This document shows positions 1 to 23,125 of a stretch of 37,261 bases of DNA, piece after piece. Made by a program: the position numbers and the translations under genes. Source of the DNA: a virus (lineage: Duplodnaviria; Caudoviricetes); the IMG/VR virus record IMGVR_UViG_3300031999_002039, positions 1 through 37,261 of that record; one strand, 5' to 3'. The notes beneath the pieces are model-generated. The model ran no database searches. It had not been told where the DNA came from and saw only the letters and a list, made by a program, of their open reading frames with translations. Numbering within the stretch: position 1 is the first letter of the stretch; each line of letters starts with the position of its first letter.

Positions 1-155
1 GCATTCGTTAATACCACAAATTAGGAGCAACTCAAACAGGACAAAGGGTAGTGCTTCCCGTTGTAAAAGTCCGGGTTGAGGCATCCCGTGAGGGGCTTAC
101 CGAAAGGTATGAGATAAATGTAAAGATAGAACAGAACCGCGGCTACGGCTGTGTC
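1..155 (+). ncRNA. rnpB: RNase P RNA, bacterial type A-like (3' part; 5' end outside window)
   Basis: Landmarks in canonical order: GGAGCAA (24-30); P15 CTC/GAG (31-33/78-80) with L15 GGGTT (73-77); P16 GGAC/GTCC (39-42/69-72); GNRA-capped hairpins (GTGA, GAAA); CR-IV-like AGATAAATG (112-120); CR-V-like ACAGAACCGCGGCTA (131-145). Ends just before a tRNA. Confidence 0.65.
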
Positions 156-161
156 GAATAT

Positions 162-237
162 GGGGTCTTAGCTCAGTTGGTAGAGCGTCTCAATGGCATT
201 GAGAAGGTCAGGGGTTCGACTCCCCTAGGCTCCACCA
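162..237 (+). tRNA. tRNA-Ala(GGC)
   Basis: Full cloverleaf; acceptor GGGGTCT/AGGCTCC with G3:U70; anticodon loop ATGGCAT (A32-U38 as in bacterial Ala-GGC); TTCGA T-loop; ACCA end. Confidence 0.96.
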
Positions 238-239
238 TT

Positions 240-640
240 TTTGGCTGACTGCAAGAGAGCAGTTGCGGAATGATAACCGTCATTCTTAGAGAATCGTATT
301 CTCGACCAAACTTTAGTCTAACTATTATTGATTAGTTGAGATTTCTTGGTAAGAAATCAAGAGAGTCATACTCTCTCAGGCTAATACAGGAGGTATTCAT
401 CTTTAATCGGATGATATCTCCGACAATTTAGATGTAGTTACAGCAATAACTATATTACATGAAAAAAACCAAACAGGTAAAAAATCCCGACCAAAATCGG
501 GTCGTGGCGATGGCCACGTAAAAAACGTTCAACATGGATACGTTGTAAAAAATGTCACGGAGAAAACCGTAAATCTTACATCTAGTCATCTTCTTCTTCG
601 TGAAGAGGATAAAGTCTCTCTCTTGTGAGGAAGACTTTAT
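240..640 (+). ncRNA. Candidate large structured non-coding RNA(s) in tRNA spacer
   Basis: No credible ORF; nearly continuous hairpins; two four-way junctions (240-310, 313-384), hairpin 389-421, multibranch domain closed by TAGATGTA/TACATCTA (429-436/577-584), hairpins 588-610 and 609-640. Strand assumed from the flanking tRNAs. Confidence 0.55.
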
Positions 641-5215: not shown

Positions 5216-7201
5216 ATGCCAATCATAGGAAATAAAAGAGTAACACAATTGGTAGAACTTACAGCAGGTGAGATTTCATTTGATGATTTGTTTTATATCG
5301 TTGATGTTTCTGCTAGAGAATCGAAGAGGATTAAAACATCAGAATTATCTGCGTGGTTAAATGGTAGTGGTAGTATTTATGCTTTTTACGCTGTGACTGC
5401 TGGCACAGCATCGTGGGCTACAAATGTTGTTGGTAATACCGTAGGTTCTTCTAGTACATCAAATTTTGCGGTGAGTGCATTGTCAGCTTCTTGGGCCAGT
5501 CAATCTTTTAGAGCTGTCAGTTCATCATATGCTTTAACAGCGTCATATGCATTAAATGGAAATAATACAGGTTCACCTTCCGCATCATTCTTGGTTTATA
5601 CAGGAACTCCAAATGGTACAGCATCATATGCCTTAAATGCGTTGACTTCTGATACATCTACCGCTACACAATTCTTGTTGTATTTTGGTGGAAACAATGG
5701 AACGGCATCATATGCGATGCAAGCAGAAGACTCTTTTCACGCAGTCACAGCAGATACAGCATCATACTTTAATAATCTCTTGGGGACGGTTGCCAGCGCA
5801 TCTTATGCGTTAAATGCTGATACGGCTAGTTCGGTTTTTAATGACACAGTTCCATCGGCGTCGTTCTTGGTATATTCACCGGATAATGGAACAGCGTCAT
5901 ATGCGATTCAAGCTGGTTCAGTTGCAGGAATCATGGGTAACTTTGGGTTATTTCCGGCAGAATTTCAAACGATAAGTGCCTCAGGAATTAATAATATATC
6001 AGTACTTTCATCTTTAGCAATAGAACAAGAAACCATGATTCAGGCGTTTGGAAATGTTATTGTAAACTTTACAGCATCAACACCAGATACAGATTATAAA
6101 CTTAGATTGGTTGGCGTTGACCGAAAGACGGGAGAAAGGTCGGTTCTTGATTCGTCTAAAATGAATTTCAATATAACACCATTAATCAACGTATGGTCAA
6201 TGGTTGGAAGTGGTTCGATGGCTATGCCTTTTAATTTAATAACTCAACAACCATTATATGGAGAGTATTATCTGGCGGTATCATCATCATCGCCATATCT
6301 ACAAATAGATGAAGATAGGGATGTGGTATTTAGCGTTTCAAGTTATAGTGATGTTGTGACGGCTGGGTTTGATGTACCTATGGAATTTTATGTTAGTCCC
6401 TCATCGTCAGTAACGATTAGTTTTTCTTCAAGTGCTCTTCCGGGACAAGTAGTAAGAGACTATTTACCGGGATTCTTACAAACATCTTCATTACTCATTA
6501 CAGAAGTAAATGTGTATAGTCAATCGGTAAATTCGGTTCTTTTTACTTGGACTCTTCCAAATTTAAGAAAATTTTATTGTGGAACAAATCCATCCCTAAC
6601 AGATTTGAGTTATACTTTTTCAAACGCACTAGAAGTGTTGTCGTGTGATGATTGTTCAATAACTACAATTTCATCTTTAGGTGATACAACCGCGTCGGTA
6701 TTAACTTGTAGAAATAATATGATAATGTCACTACCGACTTTATCACCGTCAATGTCTTACATAGATTGTGCTAATAATCCATTGGTAGTATTACCTGCAT
6801 TTTTACCAATTACACTACAAACGTTAAGAGCTAGTGATACAGCATTGACAGGAACAGTTCCAAATCTTCCTAACGGATTTGTTCGTGGTGAGTTTCATAA
6901 TACTATTATTTCAGTTTTACCTAATCCGTTACCACTATCATTGTCATACTTTGACATACACCAAACGTTGGTAGCCACAATGTCAGCCGCACCGGTTTCA
7001 TTGTCATATTTGGATGTAAGTAGTGCTTCATTTGATGATGTAGCATTAGATAATGTTAGCACTTATCTAGTAAACAATGGACAGAACTCTGGAACGTTCT
7101 TATTGAGAGGGTACGGGCCACCAGCATCATTGACATTACAAACTAACATAGCAACATTGACAGCTAGTGCAACTCGTCATTGGACTGTTGCGCACGATTA
7201 A
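5216..7201 (+). CDS. Tail fibre-like protein with C-terminal leucine-rich repeats
   Basis: Paralogous N-terminus (RVTQLVEL...DVSARESKR); NGTASYA repeats; LxxLxCxxN / LPxLP type LRRs in roughly the last 220 aa. Confidence 0.65.
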   Translation: MPIIGNKRVTQLVELTAGEISFDDLFYIVDVSARESKRIKTSELSAWLNGSGSIYAFYAVTAGTASWATNVVGNTVGSSSTSNFAVSALSASWASQSFRAVSSSYALTASYALNGNNTGSPSASFLVYTGTPNGTASYALNALTSDTSTATQFLLYFGGNNGTASYAMQAEDSFHAVTADTASYFNNLLGTVASASYALNADTASSVFNDTVPSASFLVYSPDNGTASYAIQAGSVAGIMGNFGLFPAEFQTISASGINNISVLSSLAIEQETMIQAFGNVIVNFTASTPDTDYKLRLVGVDRKTGERSVLDSSKMNFNITPLINVWSMVGSGSMAMPFNLITQQPLYGEYYLAVSSSSPYLQIDEDRDVVFSVSSYSDVVTAGFDVPMEFYVSPSSSVTISFSSSALPGQVVRDYLPGFLQTSSLLITEVNVYSQSVNSVLFTWTLPNLRKFYCGTNPSLTDLSYTFSNALEVLSCDDCSITTISSLGDTTASVLTCRNNMIMSLPTLSPSMSYIDCANNPLVVLPAFLPITLQTLRASDTALTGTVPNLPNGFVRGEFHNTIISVLPNPLPLSLSYFDIHQTLVATMSAAPVSLSYLDVSSASFDDVALDNVSTYLVNNGQNSGTFLLRGYGPPASLTLQTNIATLTASATRHWTVAHD

Positions 7202-12012: not shown

Positions 12013-12441
12013 ATGACAAAGAAACTGATATGGAAGTTGTTTTTTAATACTGGATTCACAGACCCTACAAAATTAATAGGGGAGGAAAGAACAAAGTATC
12101 TAGCATTCAAAGTTTTTGAATTTATGAATTCGGATAATGTAGAGGATTTTTTTGGGTTGATAAATAACAACAAAGAAACTCTCAATAGATTGAAGAGTGT
12201 GTGGTTGAAAAGGATTGATGAATCTAAGCAAAAGATATTAGCATATTTGGAGTCTGAACGATTACAAGCTACCGAAGAATCAGAAATCGCTGCTATAAAT
12301 GAAGTAAAACAACTTGTTATCGACTACGATTACGAATCGGATTACTCTGGGGTCAATACTTACAAGGATATTATATCGAAATGGCCCAATATTTTGTTGC
12401 CTGTTCCGACAGATGTTAATATACTCAATAAACTATTATGA
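12013..12441 (+). CDS. Tail-fibre-chaperone-like hypothetical protein
   Basis: Likely start MTKKLIW at 12013 (the upstream extension is antisense to the GT29 gene); ends IISKWPNILLPVPTD. Confidence 0.55.
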   Translation: MTKKLIWKLFFNTGFTDPTKLIGEERTKYLAFKVFEFMNSDNVEDFFGLINNNKETLNRLKSVWLKRIDESKQKILAYLESERLQATEESEIAAINEVKQLVIDYDYESDYSGVNTYKDIISKWPNILLPVPTDVNILNKLL

Positions 12442-13361
12442 ATTTTGCCGTAAAGAGAATGTCGTGGAAAGATGTGAAATTTTCCACAGGCCTCACATCT
12501 TCAAAAAATGAAAATTCTAACCAACTTTTCATTGATATGTTGTCATCTAAAGGTCTTGGTGGATTAGAAAAATACCCAAACATCGCTCAGTGTTACAATC
12601 AATTGATACACTATTTTCAGATAGAACCGGACTCAATCATCTTAGGTTTCGGAGGCGACCAACTGTTGAAAGATTTATTTGTGGTGTTAGACTACAATTC
12701 TATTCAGATTTTTAACCACAGTTATGAATTAGCCACGGTTTACAACCAAATACTGAATAAGAGTGTTTTATTGAATGATTACATCTTCGATGGAGAATTC
12801 AAAGTAAAGACGCCTATTGAGTTTGTAGGAGGCGACGTATTGTATTTGGTGAACCCACACTGTCCAACAGGTATAGAACTCTACGTGGAAGAGATAGAAA
12901 TACTGGCCACAAAGTTCAAATACATCATCATTGACGAAGCCTATAAAAATCCACTCAATATAGACCACAGACTTTTGAAGATTGATAACGTCATCGTTGT
13001 CAAAAGTTTTTCAAAGATTGGAGGGGTTCCCGGCTTACGATTTGGATATTGTCTGGCCAATAAATCAATCATTGAAAAGCTCAGAACGATAAAACCGTTG
13101 TATGAAATGAACAGTATTTCTGTAAAATACTTGAACTACATTCTCCACAACCCACAAGTTTTAGACGACCATCTGATGGAAATGGGCAAGACCTACGACA
13201 TATTGAAGGTCATAAACGGTGGGTTTAGTGTCCGTGTAGGAAATTTTGCTACATTTGAATGCTTTGGAAAATTATCAGGTAAATTCTATTCTATTGATGG
13301 AAAAACTTTCGTAAGAACAACACTGACAGATGTTGACAACTATAAGAGGTTATTGTTATGA
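12438..13361 (+). CDS. PLP-dependent class I/II aminotransferase or decarboxylase (HisC/CobD-like)
   Basis: GFGGD, NPHCPTG, DEAY and SFSKIGGVPGLRFGY (PLP lysine) motifs. Confidence 0.88.
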   Translation: MNFAVKRMSWKDVKFSTGLTSSKNENSNQLFIDMLSSKGLGGLEKYPNIAQCYNQLIHYFQIEPDSIILGFGGDQLLKDLFVVLDYNSIQIFNHSYELATVYNQILNKSVLLNDYIFDGEFKVKTPIEFVGGDVLYLVNPHCPTGIELYVEEIEILATKFKYIIIDEAYKNPLNIDHRLLKIDNVIVVKSFSKIGGVPGLRFGYCLANKSIIEKLRTIKPLYEMNSISVKYLNYILHNPQVLDDHLMEMGKTYDILKVINGGFSVRVGNFATFECFGKLSGKFYSIDGKTFVRTTLTDVDNYKRLLL

Positions 13362-14053
13362 AAGTAGTAATTGTAGGAAATGGTAAATGTGCTCTTAACA
13401 ATAAGAATGGAAAATTCATTGATGGGTGTGATGTAGTTGTCCGAATCAAGAACTTTCAGACGATTGGTTTTGAAGAGTTTGTAGGTGAAAAGATAACCCT
13501 CTTTTCAAGCAAATGGTTTTCTTGGTTTGATAGACATACCAACGAACCATTAAAATTTGATTTCTTGGATAGAGTTAATGACTATCTGTTCATGTTTTAT
13601 GACCCATTCAAAAGGCACAATTTCAGTGAAATTGCTTATAGGAAACTTTATGAGGAATTACAGTTGAAAAACGAATTCCACGACAGCATAATTGGAACTC
13701 CTGAATTGCATAGTAGATATTTGAAAGAATTTGGAATAGACAATAAGACGATTCATTATATGTCTCCAGAAGAAATTGAAGAGTTGGTGATTAGACAACT
13801 GAAATTCAACCCTGACAAATATCTGACCCCATCAGGCAAATTAGTAGAACCTACATGTGGCATAAGAACCATACACAAGATGTTAAATCTCTATAAGAAC
13901 GATGAAATCTTTATCACAGGCTTTGATGGGTTTATGACTACTTGGTATTGGAATGAGTCTCATAAAAAGAATCCGGCACATGCTTACATCAATGAGATTT
14001 TGTATTTGAAGAGACTTGCCAAGAGTGGTAGAGTGAAAAATTTGGATGAATAA
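13358..14053 (+). CDS. GT29 (sialyltransferase-like) protein
   Basis: VVIVGNG..G.FIDGCDVVVRIKN..VG.K; PTCG; FITGFD; HAYINE. Confidence 0.78.
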   Translation: MKVVIVGNGKCALNNKNGKFIDGCDVVVRIKNFQTIGFEEFVGEKITLFSSKWFSWFDRHTNEPLKFDFLDRVNDYLFMFYDPFKRHNFSEIAYRKLYEELQLKNEFHDSIIGTPELHSRYLKEFGIDNKTIHYMSPEEIEELVIRQLKFNPDKYLTPSGKLVEPTCGIRTIHKMLNLYKNDEIFITGFDGFMTTWYWNESHKKNPAHAYINEILYLKRLAKSGRVKNLDE

Positions 14054-14672
14054 TTCTCCGTCAGTTATTATTGTTGGAAAAGGAACTTCTCTTCTTGGGA
14101 AAGAATTGGGTAGTGTCATAGATGCGTTTGATATAGTCATTCGTGTCAATCATATGCCTACGGATACGAATGTACAAAAACACATAGGAGCAAAAACTAC
14201 CATATTTTCTTCCATACCTGTTAGGAAAATTACAGAATATTGGAATGATATAGTGGCCATTAAAAAATTGTGGATAGGTAAATCGTGGGAAATAGAACGA
14301 AATAATGTAAAATACCAAGGTTACTACAAAATTATTGATGATGCTAATAAAGAAGGAGTGGATGTGAAATTTTTAAGTAAAGAAGAATACACACATCTTG
14401 TAGAGGAATTTTCTGGGTTTGGGGAAGTGTTTTGTTCATCGGATGGTGAGTGGGGCCTTTGTATTCCTGATACAGGAGTAACTACCATTCTCAGTGCGAT
14501 ACATAGATTTGAAGGCAGCAAAATCTGTGTTTGTGGATTTGATTTCTATGTAGATAAAACGAATGTATTTGACTATGAATACAATCTCCGTCTTATTGGA
14601 ACAGAACCGATAATGAAACAAATTTTGTATTACAAGAAGTTATTATACAGTGGAAAAATCTATGAGTTATGA
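14046..14672 (+). CDS. GT29 (sialyltransferase-like) protein
   Basis: IIVGKG..LGSVIDAFDIVIRVN..HIGAKTT; PDTG; VCGFD. Confidence 0.75.
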   Translation: MNNSPSVIIVGKGTSLLGKELGSVIDAFDIVIRVNHMPTDTNVQKHIGAKTTIFSSIPVRKITEYWNDIVAIKKLWIGKSWEIERNNVKYQGYYKIIDDANKEGVDVKFLSKEEYTHLVEEFSGFGEVFCSSDGEWGLCIPDTGVTTILSAIHRFEGSKICVCGFDFYVDKTNVFDYEYNLRLIGTEPIMKQILYYKKLLYSGKIYEL

Positions 14673-15546
14673 GAATGAACATCTGAATAAGAGGATTAGT
14701 AGGTATGATATAAATACTAAGGCTGCATCCTTTACCACGACATTGAAAGGATTGGCCATCATTGTTCTTAACATTACGGAACTATGCACACGAAAATGTT
14801 CGTTCTGTCCCAGAACCAATCCTGAGATATATCCAAACCAAAATATTCACATGACAAAGGAAACGGCGTTTCTGATATCTGAGAAGTGTAAATTGGACGG
14901 ATATACTGGAGATATCCATATTTCAGGCTTTGGAGAACCATTACTCAACAGAAACATATTGGAACTTTTGACAAATATCCGTGTCAATCTTCCAAACAAT
15001 CATATCATCCTTACATCCAATGGTGATAGGATGACGATTGATTACATGAAATCTCTGTATTCCTCAGGTGTCAATTACATTTCTATTAGTTGTTACGAAG
15101 AACCATTGTATGCAAAGTTTGAAAAGATGTTTGCTGATTGTGATGTTCCACAGGAAAATTTCAAGATAAGAAAGTTGTGGTTCATTGAGAATGAAAATAC
15201 AAGTGAATTTGTAGAACGAAACACTTTTCACAATGCTGGTGGAACTTTACCGGGCGACAACGATAAAGTAAAGAATAATCCATGTTATTTTCCATTCTAC
15301 AAGATGATGGTTGACTGGAATGGGGATGTATTGTTATGTTGTGAGGATTGGTTACGAAAGGCCGGCACATTCGGTAATCTTACAAGAGATAGTCTGAGTG
15401 AGGTATGGCATGGTCAAAAATTCAATGAGATTAGAATGGGATTATTGAACAAGAACAGGGCATGTAACAATGCCTGTAAGAATTGTAGTATCAATGGTCT
15501 TTTGATGGGGTATGATAGTGTCAAAGTTCTTGAGTCAATTTTATGA
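14662..15546 (+). CDS. Radical SAM enzyme with SPASM/twitch domain
   Basis: CTRKCSFC, GFGEP, TSNG; C-terminal PCYFPF..DWNGDVLLCC..GN..W..CKNC. Confidence 0.9.
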   Translation: MSYENEHLNKRISRYDINTKAASFTTTLKGLAIIVLNITELCTRKCSFCPRTNPEIYPNQNIHMTKETAFLISEKCKLDGYTGDIHISGFGEPLLNRNILELLTNIRVNLPNNHIILTSNGDRMTIDYMKSLYSSGVNYISISCYEEPLYAKFEKMFADCDVPQENFKIRKLWFIENENTSEFVERNTFHNAGGTLPGDNDKVKNNPCYFPFYKMMVDWNGDVLLCCEDWLRKAGTFGNLTRDSLSEVWHGQKFNEIRMGLLNKNRACNNACKNCSINGLLMGYDSVKVLESIL

Positions 15547-16475
15547 GTTCCAAAAGAATAGCATTTGTCTGTGATGAAGATTTACCAAACTATTTGGTGA
15601 ATCCGAAACGTTATGATTATCTCCAAGGTAAACATAGTGCCACAGGCTATTACTATTGGATACTCAAAAACCACGGAATTGAGAACATAGAATTGGTAGG
15701 ATTGGATGCCAACCTCAATGATTATGACGTAGTAGTAATTTACTATGACAACAAGGATATTTTACAACCGAATCGAAAGTATAAGGTAATCCAATCAGTT
15801 TCAGACCGACCACAGATAGAGGGGTGTGACTTGTATATTTGCTGCAATTACAGCACTATCAAGCCAATTTTGGATGTGGAATTGGTGAAAAGATGTGGGG
15901 TGGGGTTAAAACACGTCTTAAAGGGGTCGTGGCACTATATTCACTACCCCATGGCGTTAAATTACAAGAAGTGTAATCCGGTATGGCCACCGTCAATATA
16001 CCACTTTACAGGGCGACAAAACACCTTGATTGAAGAACTGTATTCGGATGTGTTTATAGACCACATGAAATCGAAAGGCATTAATCTACGATTTGATTTT
16101 CTTACCGACCACAATAACGGTGATGAAGACGTGTATTTTTGTGTCAGAAACAATAAGACATATTACTCAGAGATTTGTGGTGGAAACAACGTGGACACAG
16201 CATTGGGACAGAAAACAGCCAACAGACTTTATCAGGCGTGGAAGATGGGTACACCATCAATTTTCCATTCTAATTCGGCAATGTTTTCAATCAGAAAATC
16301 GGAGTATGATTTCTTGATTGCTGATACCGTTGATGAATTTGAAGATGCTTGTATTCGTTTGAAGACGAATGAAATCCTATTTAAGAACATGGTTGATGTG
16401 TGTAATAAAAGACAAAATGAACACACCAACGAAGACATAGTGAAACAGTGGATGAAAGGTTTTAGTTTGATATGA
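15543..16475 (+). CDS. Putative GT-B fold glycosyltransferase
   Basis: C-terminal KTANRLYQAWKMGTPSI resembles the K..RL...W..G.P.I donor-binding segment of GT-B enzymes; gene context agrees. Confidence 0.55.
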   Translation: MSSKRIAFVCDEDLPNYLVNPKRYDYLQGKHSATGYYYWILKNHGIENIELVGLDANLNDYDVVVIYYDNKDILQPNRKYKVIQSVSDRPQIEGCDLYICCNYSTIKPILDVELVKRCGVGLKHVLKGSWHYIHYPMALNYKKCNPVWPPSIYHFTGRQNTLIEELYSDVFIDHMKSKGINLRFDFLTDHNNGDEDVYFCVRNNKTYYSEICGGNNVDTALGQKTANRLYQAWKMGTPSIFHSNSAMFSIRKSEYDFLIADTVDEFEDACIRLKTNEILFKNMVDVCNKRQNEHTNEDIVKQWMKGFSLI

Positions 16476-17263
16476 GTGACGATAAAGTAATACAATATTC
16501 ACTGACAGGAGCGGCGCCTACAATTTACTACATGTATGCTTCTAAAATACAGAAATATTGTGAAGAGAATGGAATTAATTTCAGTCTAAAAAATTCTGAA
16601 AATAACCTAAAAGAAACACTGTGTAAGGACAATCGCCATACTATTTCTTTTTGTCCGATAGACTTTTATATCAAGTTGGTAGATTTTTGTAAGGAGGCCA
16701 AAAAAATCAAAAAAGAGTTTGATTGTTTTATGGGATGTAATTTGTCAATGGGGTCACATATAGGCACGTTTGATTCTAACAATCCACATTTGTATTTATC
16801 CATAACGTTTTTCTTTATTATGGACAAGAAAGTGGTTATGAAATGGAAATTGATTCCACACATTGAAGATGAAAAAAAAGTCATAAATGAAGGAATTGTT
16901 ATTAGAAATGGTAAAGTTTCTGTATTTTCATATAAACGAATCAATAAAATGGCATGGAAAATATATGATGGTTATTATGACCATCTTATTTTAGCTCCCG
17001 GAACACTTTTCATTCACGGTCTTATTACAGGATTAAAACTTGGTAAATTTGACCATGACCATATAGATTATGTAAAAGACCGAGCAGCAATTATAAAACA
17101 TATCGACCAATTTAATTCAAAATATGGTACAACCATGTATTTGTCAGATGATGATAAAGTATTGAATACTCCGGGCGGTCTAAATGTTATGTGTGAACAG
17201 GCAGTAAAAGACGGTGTGAAGTATCCATATACAACCAGTTGTATAAAAAGAATGTCAGAGTAA
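16472..17263 (+). CDS. Hypothetical protein
   Basis: 263-aa ORF coupled to the previous gene by an ATGA overlap; no motif recognised. Confidence 0.75.
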   Translation: MSDDKVIQYSLTGAAPTIYYMYASKIQKYCEENGINFSLKNSENNLKETLCKDNRHTISFCPIDFYIKLVDFCKEAKKIKKEFDCFMGCNLSMGSHIGTFDSNNPHLYLSITFFFIMDKKVVMKWKLIPHIEDEKKVINEGIVIRNGKVSVFSYKRINKMAWKIYDGYYDHLILAPGTLFIHGLITGLKLGKFDHDHIDYVKDRAAIIKHIDQFNSKYGTTMYLSDDDKVLNTPGGLNVMCEQAVKDGVKYPYTTSCIKRMSE

Positions 17264-18136
17264 AATATCTACACTCTCTTTGCCTATCAATGTTCCTGTT
17301 ATGTTACAGTGTTTACATGCTGGATTGTTAGTTCTGTCTCCAGTGATAAGTGATTTACGAACTTTGGTAAATTCTTCACCAAACCAAATCTCTCTGAGAC
17401 TTTGTTCATTGATATTACCAAATCCCTTATGCCTTCTAAGCCAATCATTACAACACAATAATACATCACCATTCCAATCAATAACCAGTTTGTAAAATGG
17501 CAAATAACACTGGCCACTGTAGGTCTTGTCTTCTTTTATGGATGATACTGCACCTGAACGATTGTTGAACTTATTCTTTTCAACGAACGTCTTTATGTCT
17601 TCGTCTGGATTACGCCACAGTTTACGTATCTCATATGATGATTGTGGTATATTCGACTCTTGAAAGAGTAAATCAAATTTCTCTTTACTTTCGGGACCAT
17701 CGTAACAACTTATTATCATGAAATCCAAACCACACTCATAGATTTCTTTCAAATTCATCTTATTCAAACAATCACCGTTGTTGGTTATTGTTACACGGTT
17801 GTTTGGTAAGTGTATCTTCAACGTCTTTACGATATCAAAGATTTTTTTGTGTAAAAATGGTTCACCAAAACCTGAAATATGAATGTCTCCGGTGTATTTT
17901 TCTTCCTTACATTTTCGGGCGAAATTGTCCACGGTTTCTATGGACATGTGGAGATTTCTATTCTTATAGACGGTTGCATCGCCTCTTGGACAAAACTTAC
18001 ACGTCCTAGTACAAAGTTCGGTAATGCATAATTCAACTACTGCCAACCCCTTTAGATGTTCTTTGAACGATTCCGTCTGTGAGTTGATGTAGTATCTGTC
18101 AAATCTTTTTTCAAGATGTTCTGTTGAATTTACCAT
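17255..18136 (-). CDS. Radical SAM enzyme with SPASM/twitch domain (paralogue of 14662-15546)
   Basis: Likely start MVNSTE at 18136; CTRTCKFC, GFGEP, CYLPFYK..DWNGDVLLCC..CKHC. Confidence 0.9.
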   Translation of the reverse strand: MVNSTEHLEKRFDRYYINSQTESFKEHLKGLAVVELCITELCTRTCKFCPRGDATVYKNRNLHMSIETVDNFARKCKEEKYTGDIHISGFGEPFLHKKIFDIVKTLKIHLPNNRVTITNNGDCLNKMNLKEIYECGLDFMIISCYDGPESKEKFDLLFQESNIPQSSYEIRKLWRNPDEDIKTFVEKNKFNNRSGAVSSIKEDKTYSGQCYLPFYKLVIDWNGDVLLCCNDWLRRHKGFGNINEQSLREIWFGEEFTKVRKSLITGDRTNNPACKHCNITGTLIGKESVDILL

Positions 18137-19104
18137 TATTTCAATTTGGTAGCATGGGCGTAGGCGATACATGATTCACATGCGGTGCCAGTAACATCCT
18201 TTTTCAAATGGGCAGCCCTAAACTTCTGAAATCCTTCTGAATTCCAAGCATCCATGAATGATTCTTTGTTCAAATCACCGACTTGGAATTTGCCTGAACC
18301 ATCGAAACAACAGACAGTAAGACCACCATCCGCCCTTACATGACCTTCGGTAAATACCGACCAACAAGGAAGTGGGTCCACCAAAGCACCTATGCGGCCC
18401 TGATTACCCGCGGTGGGCCTATAACCAAGTTCTTCTTCTCGTGTGGTTGCAAAACTTGCCATCGAATACAAAGGAAGCCAATAATGTTTATCCACATAAG
18501 GTCTGATATTCTCATTCAGGAAATTTTCCATTTTACCTTCTTGAGTTTTGTCATATTGAATGGAACTGGCTGATAACTTGGTTTTATATCCTTTTTCATT
18601 TCGGATTTTAAATGCTTCTTGGATGTTCTTAATTGTATTTCTAAACATCTTTGGTGATACAGCCATGATGGTAGCAAATTGGGCTTCGTCACAAGCATTA
18701 ACCGACCATTTCAGAGAATCCAAGCCGGCCTTCATGACACGTTCTACTATGGCCGGAGTCGCCAGTGACCCGTTGGAAGTCAGGAAGACATAAGGCATAC
18801 CAATCTCTTTCAGATAGAGGATGGCTGCTTCAAGTAAATCAGGATTGATGGTGGATTCACCAATGTAGAATACGCCTATTTCTTCAACGCCCGCATCCAA
18901 CATTTCTTTGGTGATTCGTTTGAACAAGTTCAAATCCATGTCGGTTTTGGGTTGAACCACACGGGCGGATAGAGAACAGAATCCACAACGGAAGTTGCAT
19001 CGAGGAGATAATTCTATCTTAACTGAGCGGGGCGCGGGAATGATGGTTTTAAGCCTATCAACCGGAATCTTTGTTATACTGTCAATTCTTTGTGTGATAT
19101 CCAT
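18136..19104 (-). CDS. Radical SAM enzyme with SPASM/twitch domain
   Basis: CNFRCGFC, IGE, TSNG; PCWSVF..DGGLTVCCFD..GDL..W..CESC. Confidence 0.9.
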   Translation of the reverse strand: MDITQRIDSITKIPVDRLKTIIPAPRSVKIELSPRCNFRCGFCSLSARVVQPKTDMDLNLFKRITKEMLDAGVEEIGVFYIGESTINPDLLEAAILYLKEIGMPYVFLTSNGSLATPAIVERVMKAGLDSLKWSVNACDEAQFATIMAVSPKMFRNTIKNIQEAFKIRNEKGYKTKLSASSIQYDKTQEGKMENFLNENIRPYVDKHYWLPLYSMASFATTREEELGYRPTAGNQGRIGALVDPLPCWSVFTEGHVRADGGLTVCCFDGSGKFQVGDLNKESFMDAWNSEGFQKFRAAHLKKDVTGTACESCIAYAHATKLK

Positions 19105-19126
19105 AATACACGATACATATAGCAGA

Positions 19127-19786
19127 ATGAATTACATCATACATCAAACTTGGAAAAATGGCAACTTAGATGAAGAACAGAGTTTATGGGTTGATTCTAT
19201 AAAAAAAGCATATCCAAATTACAAATATAAGTTCTGGTCCGACGATGACAATTTGTGGTTGATTAGAATTAGACATCCTGAGTTTCTAAAGTTTTATGAA
19301 ACTCTTAATGCTGTAGAAAAGATTGATTTCGTAAGACACCTATACATCTACAACTATGGAGGTATTTATTTGGACATAGATGTTAAAATGAACAAACCTT
19401 TGGTATTGGAAGGTGCCGATGTATTTCTTTGCGATCAAACTGAGGAAGTAAATACTGAAAAAGTAGAATTTCTTGTGGACCCGTTCTTTTTAGCTGGTGA
19501 GGAAAAGTGTTCATTTTTCTACTCAATGTGCGAATCAATGATGCGAGGAACTATCTATAATATCCTATCATCCAAAACCGACAAGAAATACCACGAAACT
19601 TTGTATAAAACTGGCCCCTATATGTTCACAAAGTTTTACTTGATAAACAAACACAAATACAACATCAAAGTTCTAAAAGATGTGTTTACCACTAAGTATT
19701 ATGAAACCGACACTCCAAAAGAACAGTTTTATGGTATCCACATGCAATTTAATTCGTGGTTAAACCCGGAAGACCGTCGCCGCTAA
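19127..19786 (+). CDS. GT32-like (DxD) glycosyltransferase
   Basis: Start MNYIIHQTWK at 19127; FWSD, DFVR..Y.YGGIYLDID, TGP and H..NSW motifs. Confidence 0.85.
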   Translation: MNYIIHQTWKNGNLDEEQSLWVDSIKKAYPNYKYKFWSDDDNLWLIRIRHPEFLKFYETLNAVEKIDFVRHLYIYNYGGIYLDIDVKMNKPLVLEGADVFLCDQTEEVNTEKVEFLVDPFFLAGEEKCSFFYSMCESMMRGTIYNILSSKTDKKYHETLYKTGPYMFTKFYLINKHKYNIKVLKDVFTTKYYETDTPKEQFYGIHMQFNSWLNPEDRRR

Positions 19787-22642: not shown

Positions 22643-23125
22643 TTATTTAGTTATATCAGTATTATTTAAATTAAATTGACCATTATTTCCGATTGCAGAT
22701 TTGACTTGGTTTGATTTAAAGACAACCCAACTATCGCCGGCTCCTTCATATTCATTTTCATAAACTATCCCATCATATTTTTCTTTTTTAGCTTTTTCTA
22801 TTTCCAAATCCCAATTATCAAGTACATCTTTAATTCTTTTTGGATTTTCTATTTTTAAATAAACAGGATAAATTGCAACTTTTTGATTTCTTACAGGAAG
22901 GCCACTAGCATCGTAGTAAAATCCTTCTATAGTTTTATTATTTGCTTGATTAAATGTACCAAAGTGAGATTTAGACCTAAAAACATTAAAACCAGCTTTT
23001 GGTGTTGCGTGATACATAATTAAAGGATTTCCATCACCATCAACAACTTTACTATTACCAAACCACCTTTTAAATTCGGGAGTGTCGGTTATAGATTCTA
23101 ACAAAATTGATTTTAATTTTATCAT
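22643..23125 (-). CDS. ADP-ribosyltransferase-like protein (ART-PolyVal-like)
   Basis: FKRWFGNSKVVD.DG.PL.MYHAT, HFGT, YPVYLKIENP, YDGIVYEN..EG, WVVF..NQVKSAIGNNGQF. Confidence 0.65.
   Translation of the reverse strand: MIKLKSILLESITDTPEFKRWFGNSKVVDGDGNPLIMYHATPKAGFNVFRSKSHFGTFNQANNKTIEGFYYDASGLPVRNQKVAIYPVYLKIENPKRIKDVLDNWDLEIEKAKKEKYDGIVYENEYEGAGDSWVVFKSNQVKSAIGNNGQFNLNNTDITK

Follow-up and report, generated by a model that had tools for sequence, protein, structure and literature searches.

A family of predicted non-decoding tRNA-like RNAs with an unusual arm layout in phage tRNA arrays

The tRNA array and the two modules

The stretch of DNA analysed here (the window) is a whole virus record of 37,261 bases in which genes for PhoH, baseplate and tail-collar proteins are present. 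Positions 1-1344, the end part of a tRNA array, carry five tRNA genes. Just behind the array, as is always the case, lies the gene for a highly conserved protein of 227 amino acids with an HD-like motif, HHDLGK (1415-2098), whose sole match is a PHROG of unknown function. Relatives of this protein were found at 26 viral loci. One of them sits in a record of 365,299 bases that is rated complete, and we therefore infer that the window is a fragment of a jumbo-type phage. The stretch comes mainly from sediment metagenomes (19 of 20 among the DNA runs listed, one of which is possibly its source). Further along the window, at 12438-19786 and 22643-23125, the tail genes are interspersed with genes for two GT29 (sialyltransferase-family) proteins, three radical SAM/SPASM proteins, an aminotransferase and a DXD glycosyltransferase, with an ART-PolyVal ADP-ribosyltransferase gene on the opposite strand.

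The features surrounding the two modules under study are listed in Table 1. The RNase P-like RNA upstream of tRNA-Ala(GGC) is a candidate processing enzyme for the array. A full copy is found in L001 at about 1500-1832, and the RF00010 score in Table 1 applies only to the cut copy. The start motif GAGGAAGTTCGCGG and the end motif ACAGAACCGCGGCTAC of this RNA are kept in eight aligned loci; the middle part between them varies greatly in length.

Table 1. Features of the array segment that contains the modules
Feature	Position in window	Strand	Remarks
RNase P-like RNA, 3' part	1..152	+	cut by contig end; weak RF00010 match, 8 bits
tRNA-Ala(GGC)	162..237	+	encoded CCA; module 1 begins 4 bases after
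Module 1, family-defined unit	242..309	+	score with model R3 70 bits (R3 trained on it)
Module 1 P1	242-245/305-308	+	3 pairs and a C-A mismatch
Module 1 P2	246-252/259-265	+	loop AAGAGA
Module 1 P3	267-286	+	
Module 1 P4	289-293/299-303	+	loop TCGTA 294-298
Module 2, family-defined unit	315..383	+	
Module 2 P1	315-318/379-382	+	
Module 2 P2	319-326/331-338	+	loop ATTG
Module 2 P3	340-345/353-358	+	7-base loop TTGGTAA 346-352
Module 2 P4	360-365/371-376	+	loop TCATA 366-370
Long hairpin directly 3' of module 2	389..421	+	z -4.5; outside the family at other loci
Conserved non-coding element TTAGATG...CAGCAA...CATCTAG	428..585	+	in 8/8 aligned relatives, with or without modules

Two further spacer elements are conserved in these arrays. 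Relatives of the element at 428-585, which has no Rfam match, also begin at L019:828, L007:997, L188:1426 and L001:565. Members of this element family start with TTAGATG or AAGATAC...CAGCAA, are closed by a long-range stem, occur in several copies per array and carry compensatory-looking changes, with internal tandem duplications in L005 and L018. A second conserved structured spacer, between tRNA-Gln and tRNA-Ser at 811-975, is closed by ACAACGGGTA/TATTCGTTGT; it was found in 17 of the 26 loci by nhmmer and has no Rfam match.

A sequence-only reading of the window had proposed two tandem four-way-junction RNAs at 240-310 and 313-384, and all of the stems that it claimed are present. The four-way junction is the RNAfold centroid for module 1 (-21.4 kcal/mol, z -2.82, equalled by 2 of 200 shuffles) and the RNAfold minimum-energy fold for module 2 (-21.0 kcal/mol, z -3.14, equalled by 0 of 200). 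Both modules thus fold better than shuffled controls, the comparison that the reading had suggested. For the pair taken together z is -3.95, with better folding of the + strand than of the - strand. A structure-only scan for such junctions in 213,080 bases of the window and its relatives returned 14 folds, of which the two modules are the most stable when tRNA genes and one 83-nt fold in L019 are set aside. The same scan of 1000 dinucleotide shuffles of 238-640 found one junction in three shuffles, two in none, and no junction at -20 kcal/mol or better in any.

Some details of the proposed modules were revised by comparison with the wider family described below. The closing stems are present as originally named, but only the four base pairs of P1 hold family-wide; the outer T-A pairs probably come from the spacer, since they are not kept in other members. 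Similarly, the ACT...AGT sequence at the first hairpin is shared by both modules, but four of the seven family members have ATG...CAT instead. The third hairpin does show the compensatory change from A-T to G-C, which relates the 292-293 region to 364-365 (alignment column 54:60). The likeness between the two modules is modest: they are 52% identical, 38 of 73 columns are invariant, and 11 of 2000 shuffles score equally. Their homology therefore rests on the wider family.

In module 1 the interval between P4 and P1 is two bases shorter than in other members. Module 2 has a T-T mismatch in P2 and a 2-base linker at 377-378. The discriminator position is occupied by A309 and A383, respectively, and CCA is encoded in neither module. 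The middle loop of module 2, TTGGTAA, is the loop of both of the two tRNA-Thr(GGT) genes in related arrays.

Contigs from three of four metatranscriptome runs (three studies) cover the modules, which attests presence in an RNA library with transcription unproven, as such contigs show neither strand nor ends and DNA may occur in such libraries. The X21 contig covers 262-412 and the X23 contig 180-378, both with no differences from the window. The X24 contig covers 265-585 with 20 differences and two gaps; its sole substitution inside module 2, A356G, keeps the pair as U-G. An extra base in P4 of module 2 is a strain variant present in L251 and run X24. The contigs run through the predicted cut site at 242 or the one at 315 and so come from uncut RNA or from DNA, not from mature RNAs. 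Across the RNA runs, phage-matching contigs lie over 180-585 and hardly over other non-tRNA spacers, although absent contig cover proves nothing.

Members, architecture and distribution of the family

A covariance model built from the two window copies alone (R1) was searched against 23 sources comprising 239,073 bases. Matches outside the window were L019:750-822 (30 bits, E 5e-5) and L007:835-907 (25 bits, E 9e-4); the next non-self match scored 11.9 bits. Both members lie within tRNA arrays, about 8-9 kb upstream of the shared protein gene. A fixed-spacing pattern derived from these two members and the two modules was then scanned over metagenome contigs, giving 29 loci. Nine of these score 60-89 bits with model R2, and tRNA genes are present at all nine and at none of the remaining 20. 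The nine comprise four window copies, a variant of the window in L251, one L007 repeat and three new sequences, in L231, L244 and L252, that were absent from R2 when found. The R2 matches were confirmed with model R3, whose training included them.

The family has seven distinct members in about five lineages, 41-99% identical to one another. The five members from outside the window are 41-61% identical to the window copies, and all lie in phage tRNA arrays. L244 is intermediate between the window and L007 types, with 59-64% identity to each. The most stable members are the two window copies, L244 and L252.

Other searches added no member. Pattern scans of viral contigs using letters shared by the modules gave 33, 119 (100 scored), 28 (24 scored) and 9 loci, which were solely window copies and chance matches. 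A scan of prokaryote genomes gave 14 loci; together with the 9-locus viral scan these amount to 21 new loci, none better than E 0.93. Twenty further phage loci reached by protein alignment contained no member, and a match of E 0.38 among five further records was rejected because it reads as coding sequence. In BLAST searches of phage and plasmid records one homologue returned nothing and the window modules returned just short pieces inside protein genes. A tRNA-Ile(AAT) call in L278 is an ordinary cloverleaf and was not counted. In related phages some tRNA genes have anticodons with A34 (Ile-AAT, Leu-AAG), and one tRNA has a CTA anticodon (L278:1271-1341 and 6385-6468; L294:4979-5054). An origin of the modules from the neighbouring tRNA-Ala, or from antisense tRNA, is unsupported, the alignment scores being within the shuffle range in both cases.

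The members have a common architecture. P1 is 4 bp long with an invariant G-C at pair 2, and passes with no linker into P2, which has 8 bp and the loop A-N-N-G. A single base separates P2 from P3 (5-6 bp, with an invariant U in the loop) and another separates P3 from P4 (6 bp, loop U-C-R-U-A). A 2-base linker then leads to the 3' strand of P1, which is followed by an A at the discriminator position in 7/7 members. In the five members from outside the window P1 and P2 together form 12 pairs, and P1 with P4 amounts to 10 bp with a 2-base interruption. The bases after the A are CCA in L007, L231 and L244, CCT in L252, CAA in L019, and ACT and ATA in the window copies; CCA is therefore encoded in three of the seven members, compared with 151 of the 155 canonical tRNAs of these arrays. 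The first base of P1 is preceded by short ATTT-type spacers like those of real tRNA genes in the same arrays. Indeed, in L244 and L252 a nearly identical spacer stands ahead of the module and ahead of real tRNA genes. Judged by these ends, with their A/CCA and tRNA-like spacers, the unit would be a gene of tRNA-like type whose acceptor has 4 bp.

Within the unit, the tRNA-like features that vary least are the acceptor end and both loops at elbow positions. The last arm of L007 and L019 reads GGGTTCRTAACC, close to a T arm. However, the A58 position holds U in 7/7 members and A in all 155 canonical array tRNAs, a set obtained from 163 called tRNAs by dropping eight without the loop pattern, and 54:60 is a covarying Watson-Crick pair in the family. 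The invariant A15, G18 and A19 of the P2 loop are complementary to the invariant U58, C56 and U55 of the P4 loop, respectively. The putative loop-loop helix would comprise these three pairs and one more that varies on one side only, and has no covariation support; as the invariant pairs never vary, the contact stays a proposal.

The middle arm can be read as an anticodon-like arm with a 7-base loop, which places a U at position 33 in 7/7 members and a purine at position 37 in 6/7 (module 1 has C). Such a loop is clear only in module 2, where 6 bp close TTGGTAA. In the other members the same register gives AAT or AAC after the invariant U, and the reading requires a bulge. The anticodon-like 7-base loop is the lowest-energy reading in 0/7 members.

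RNAalifold predicted 24 pairs for the seven members and a covariation term of -5.3 kcal/mol; 14 of these pairs show two-sided changes. When the loop-loop helix is left out, two-sided changes are seen in 14 of the 23 stem pairs. The named structure with the addition of the P3 pair 33:41 pairs in 96% of cells, compared with 38-46% in slid controls; the alignment puts the module 1 gap inside P1, so that two P1 cells count as gaps. The covariation score was reached by none of 500 shuffles, a test that is inflated by the relatedness of the sequences and that uses a structure derived from those same sequences. Since the seven members represent about five lineages, fewer independent events have occurred than the pair counts suggest. 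A covariance model of the two copies, the search that had been proposed at the outset, has thus led to homologues with covariation, and we regard the family as very probably a real, selected RNA fold.

The modules themselves are patchily distributed. By nhmmer they are present at two of the 26 relative loci, both copies of the window, and they are not found in the same slot of any of eight aligned relatives. In five of these eight there is no insert behind tRNA-Ala(GGC), which the downstream element follows directly; two have an unrelated insert of around 190 bases, and one has a different gene order. The ~190-base insert, at L012:4965-5160 and in the same slot of L025, has a closing stem and folds no better than shuffles (z -0.6). 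No family match was found with R3 among 67 candidates in the complete 365-kb relative, with a positive-control record matched. A CCA-ending sequence in a similar slot of this relative (L188:1298-1366; 15 bits, E 1) is equalled by 25 of 1000 shuffles and was not counted. The same relative carries a gene of PF01743, the CCA-adding/poly-A polymerase family (G001:C1:8900-9346, - strand); a PF01743 protein is encoded in one of four related records.

The neighbours of the members differ between phages. The next gene after the member is an ordinary tRNA in L007 and L252, and in the window, L019 and L231 the member is closely followed by the TTAGATG...CAGCAA element. In the window the copies stand in tandem, and differ in acceptor pairs and middle loop. 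The suggestion that the modules are domains of a larger non-coding RNA finds no support in these observations, as neighbours change from locus to locus and single copies stand alone between tRNA genes.

Comparison with known RNA classes

The modules (240-384) match no Rfam 15 family at E<=10, with tmRNA, self-cleaving ribozymes, YrlA, GOLLD and ROOL among those covered, and are not called as tRNA by ARAGORN or by RF00005. The members in L231, L244 and L252 match no Rfam family at E<=1. The Rfam scan that had been recommended therefore assigns no family to the modules or to the homologues tested. Together with the covarying homologues and a fold that beats shuffles, this bears out the original description of a repeated, unannotated RNA motif.

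GOLLD and ROOL are RNAs associated with phage tRNA arrays, and YrlA (RF02553) has a tRNA-like domain. The present family resembles all three in being non-coding RNA found with phage tRNA genes, but none of them matches the modules in Rfam. A weak match to YrlA (Y RNA-like) in L231 (1511-1618, - strand; 24.8 bits, far under the family cut-off) is a separate element about 280 bases away from the member. CRISPR-like repeats, type III antitoxin repeats and theta (HDV-like) ribozymes were dropped on anatomy as generally understood: the family has no fixed repeat and no pseudoknot.

The closest comparison is with canonical tRNA (RF00005; PMC7609411). Shared features are a length of ~70 nt before a CCA that three of the seven members encode, four helices arranged as in a cloverleaf, the discriminator, U55-C56-R57 in the last loop, and a location in arrays behind the same kind of spacer; module 2 shares in addition the sequence of the Thr(GGU) anticodon loop. 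Nevertheless, the arm layout is different. A canonical tRNA has a 7-bp acceptor contiguous with a 5-bp T stem, whereas the family has a 4-bp P1, a 2-base linker and a 6-bp P4. Two linker bases precede the second stem in tRNA and none follow the last stem; in the family these numbers are zero and two. In place of a D arm of 3-5 bp with U8, A14 and G18-G19 there is an 8-bp stem with no linker and a 4-base A-N-N-G loop that does not contain G18-G19, and the variable region is reduced to one base. The canonical T loop U54-U55-C56-R57-A58 is replaced by N-T-C-R-T-A-N.

The long second stem closed by a tetraloop (8 bp and a 4-base loop in the family) and the use of non-standard arms recall allo-tRNAs and irregular polycistronic tRNAs of the 8/4 and 9/3 types, as well as tRNA-Sec (PMC5389517). 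Some of these RNAs are reported to be charged yet unused in translation, or to be tied to toxin-antitoxin loci. However, allo-tRNAs have an acceptor of 8-9 bp, a contiguous acceptor/T branch of 12-13 bp and a long variable arm. Specifically, in place of the 8/4, 9/3, 8/5 or 9/4 branch of allo-tRNA and tRNA-Sec the family has an acceptor shortened to 4 bp and a 6-bp stem, interrupted by two bases, and a single base rather than a variable arm between P3 and P4.

In the open literature searched, titles and abstract openings describe no tRNA-like family with a 4-bp acceptor in phage arrays. The portions of PMC8172020 and PMC10085705 covered hold nothing on the family. Its motifs are unmatched in supplementary files 3-6 of PMC10690425, a study of 10,000 candidate viral RNAs among which the motif may nonetheless occur. 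By these comparisons the family falls outside canonical tRNA, the allo-tRNA and tRNA-Sec-like RNAs and the Rfam 15 families, and its members are predicted to be small, uncatalogued, non-decoding tRNA-like RNAs with an unusual arm layout. The earlier suggestion of a tRNA mimic agrees well with the invariant discriminator A, the encoded CCA of three of the seven members, the spacers like those of tRNA genes and the T-arm-like last arm.

Possible roles of the tRNA-like modules

We tentatively propose, with a probability of roughly 0.4, that the modules are accessory decoys: they would engage host enzymes that act against phages by targeting the ends or loops of tRNAs. The sequence-only reading had put forward host anticodon nucleases as possible targets. 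The modules would be co-transcribed with the tRNA array and trimmed by RNase P, either that of the host or the RNase P-like RNA upstream of tRNA-Ala, with the first base of P1 becoming the 5' end. CCA would be added after transcription where it is not encoded, and a PF01743 protein could supply this activity. In the folded RNA, A15, G18 and A19 of the P2 loop would contact U58, C56 and U55 of the P4 loop, replacing the tRNA elbow. The RNA would be excluded from decoding on the ribosome because 4+6 bp, with a 2-base bulge between the acceptor and the T-like stem, replace the unbroken 7+5 bp of tRNA, and because the T loop is not normal. Such tRNA-like RNAs would then compete for host enzymes that attack tRNA. 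Competition is the best reading of an RNA that has a tRNA-like end and corner, is predicted not to decode, is optional within its clade and has been duplicated in the window with changed acceptor pairs and loop.

Two enzymes of this kind accept shortened substrates, so mimics that are less than a full tRNA can be acted upon. The toxin FaRel2 modifies minihelices, reading acceptor pairs 1, 2, 4 and 5 (10.1101/2024.07.05.602228), and Cas12a3 cuts the CCA tails of truncated tRNAs (PMC12851939). Against a decoy role, neither window copy encodes CCA, and pair 5, which FaRel2 also reads, is absent from a 4-bp acceptor. Moreover, the tRNA-Tyr of T5-family phages, which like the present family is phage-encoded, located in tRNA-rich accessory regions and patchy among relatives, beat retron Ec78 by working in translation and not as a decoy (10.1101/2023.03.15.532788). 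That tRNA replaces a lost host tRNA, whereas the family is predicted not to decode; any protection would therefore have to be by competition.

Four other readings of the family or its window copies were weighed against the decoy role. The fold might guide RNase P or RNase Z to the cuts that release the ends of adjoining RNAs, with no later job, in the manner of the t-elements of plant mitochondria, which are tRNA-like cis-signals for RNase Z/P (PMC1920247). We consider this unlikely. It would account for the optional CCA, members always lie within tRNA arrays, and in the window's clade they are near the RNase P-like RNA; in the window, L019 and L231 the TTAGATG...CAGCAA element is closely 3'. 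The t-elements likewise have a tRNA-like fold without a decoding role, in a precursor handled by tRNA-processing enzymes. However, t-elements are found at mRNA ends, whereas the family lies between tRNA genes that mark their own ends, keeps fixed loop sequences and often encodes CCA. The ordinary tRNA that comes next in L007 and L252 marks its own ends, in five of the eight aligned relatives the downstream element adjoins tRNA-Ala without any module, and tandem copies behind an intact tRNA supply no needed cut. It is rather unlikely that the members are instead chargeable or protein-bound tRNAs working off the ribosome, with P1 stacked on P2 (4+8) as a 12-bp branch on which a synthetase, an editing factor or another binder acts, leading to sequestration or to non-translational donation of the amino acid. 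EF-Tu reads a 7+5 branch of the same twelve-pair length, and charged irregular tRNAs unused in translation are on record (both PMC5389517). U33 and the purine at 37 also fit an anticodon-like loop, and five of the seven members end in C-G-A like tRNA-Pro, which makes up 7 of the 11 canonical tRNAs with this ending. Yet the identities disagree, a Pro-like end being combined with AAU or AAC loops and the window copies having U1-A72 and A1-U72; the stacking of P1 on P2 is only putative; and in the five members from outside the window the loop reading is unfavourable in energy.

The window copies could also be duplicated relics under weak selection, with the family functional in other phages, although we find this improbable. 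Module 1 has lost two bases and one pair, now a C-A mismatch, and module 2 exists with an inserted base in P4, so the window copies may be decaying; the T-T mismatch in P2 of module 2 and the lack of CCA in both copies point the same way. On the other hand, both keep the four stems through many two-sided changes at a mutual identity of just 52%, they belong, with L244 and L252, to the most stable members, the A356G change in run X24 preserves its pair as U-G, and the missing CCA could be supplied by the PF01743 protein encoded in one of four related records. It appears very improbable that the modules are unrelated to tRNA and act in cutting the array, either as a small self-cleaving ribozyme or as part of a longer non-coding RNA. 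The compact four-way junction, the invariant loop bases and the RNA-run contigs spanning both the modules and the downstream element would suit it, but no ribozyme family matches at E<=10, and the invariant A with CCA-like bases behind it, the last arm GGGTTCRTAACC in L007 and L019 and the changing neighbours argue for a stand-alone tRNA-like unit.

A more specific and quite improbable version of events is an arm-swapped tRNA. In such a molecule the acceptor would stack on the stem at the D position (4+8 = 12 bp) and the arm at the anticodon position on the stem at the T position, with an elbow formed by A15-U58, G18-C56 and A19-U55. Host tRNA enzymes would accept this molecule, which would have the size of a tRNA and a CCA end, and phages would duplicate it with new identities of acceptor and loop against tRNA-targeting immunity.

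A phage tRNA array is commonly taken to be a set of decoding tRNAs, and the present family indicates that such arrays also hold selected tRNA-shaped genes missed by tRNA finders. If the preferred decoy reading is correct and the modules protect by competition, they would act as decoys made of RNA and not as substitutes for a tRNA. With members of ~70 bases and seven natural variants the family is cheap to test, and it would offer natural tools for learning which features of a tRNA are measured by RNase P, by the CCA-adding enzyme and by acceptor-reading toxins.

Other unusual small RNA genes were observed in these arrays. A minihelix-like fold right behind the L244 member (L244:2432-2485, - strand) consists of a short stem and a GGG-TGTAAGT-CCC hairpin and is no more stable than shuffles. 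Further odd-bodied tRNA-like genes occur in the same arrays at L019:353-426, 535-617 and 627-748, L007:558-633 and L188:1038-1121; these keep the T arm and the acceptor or CCA.
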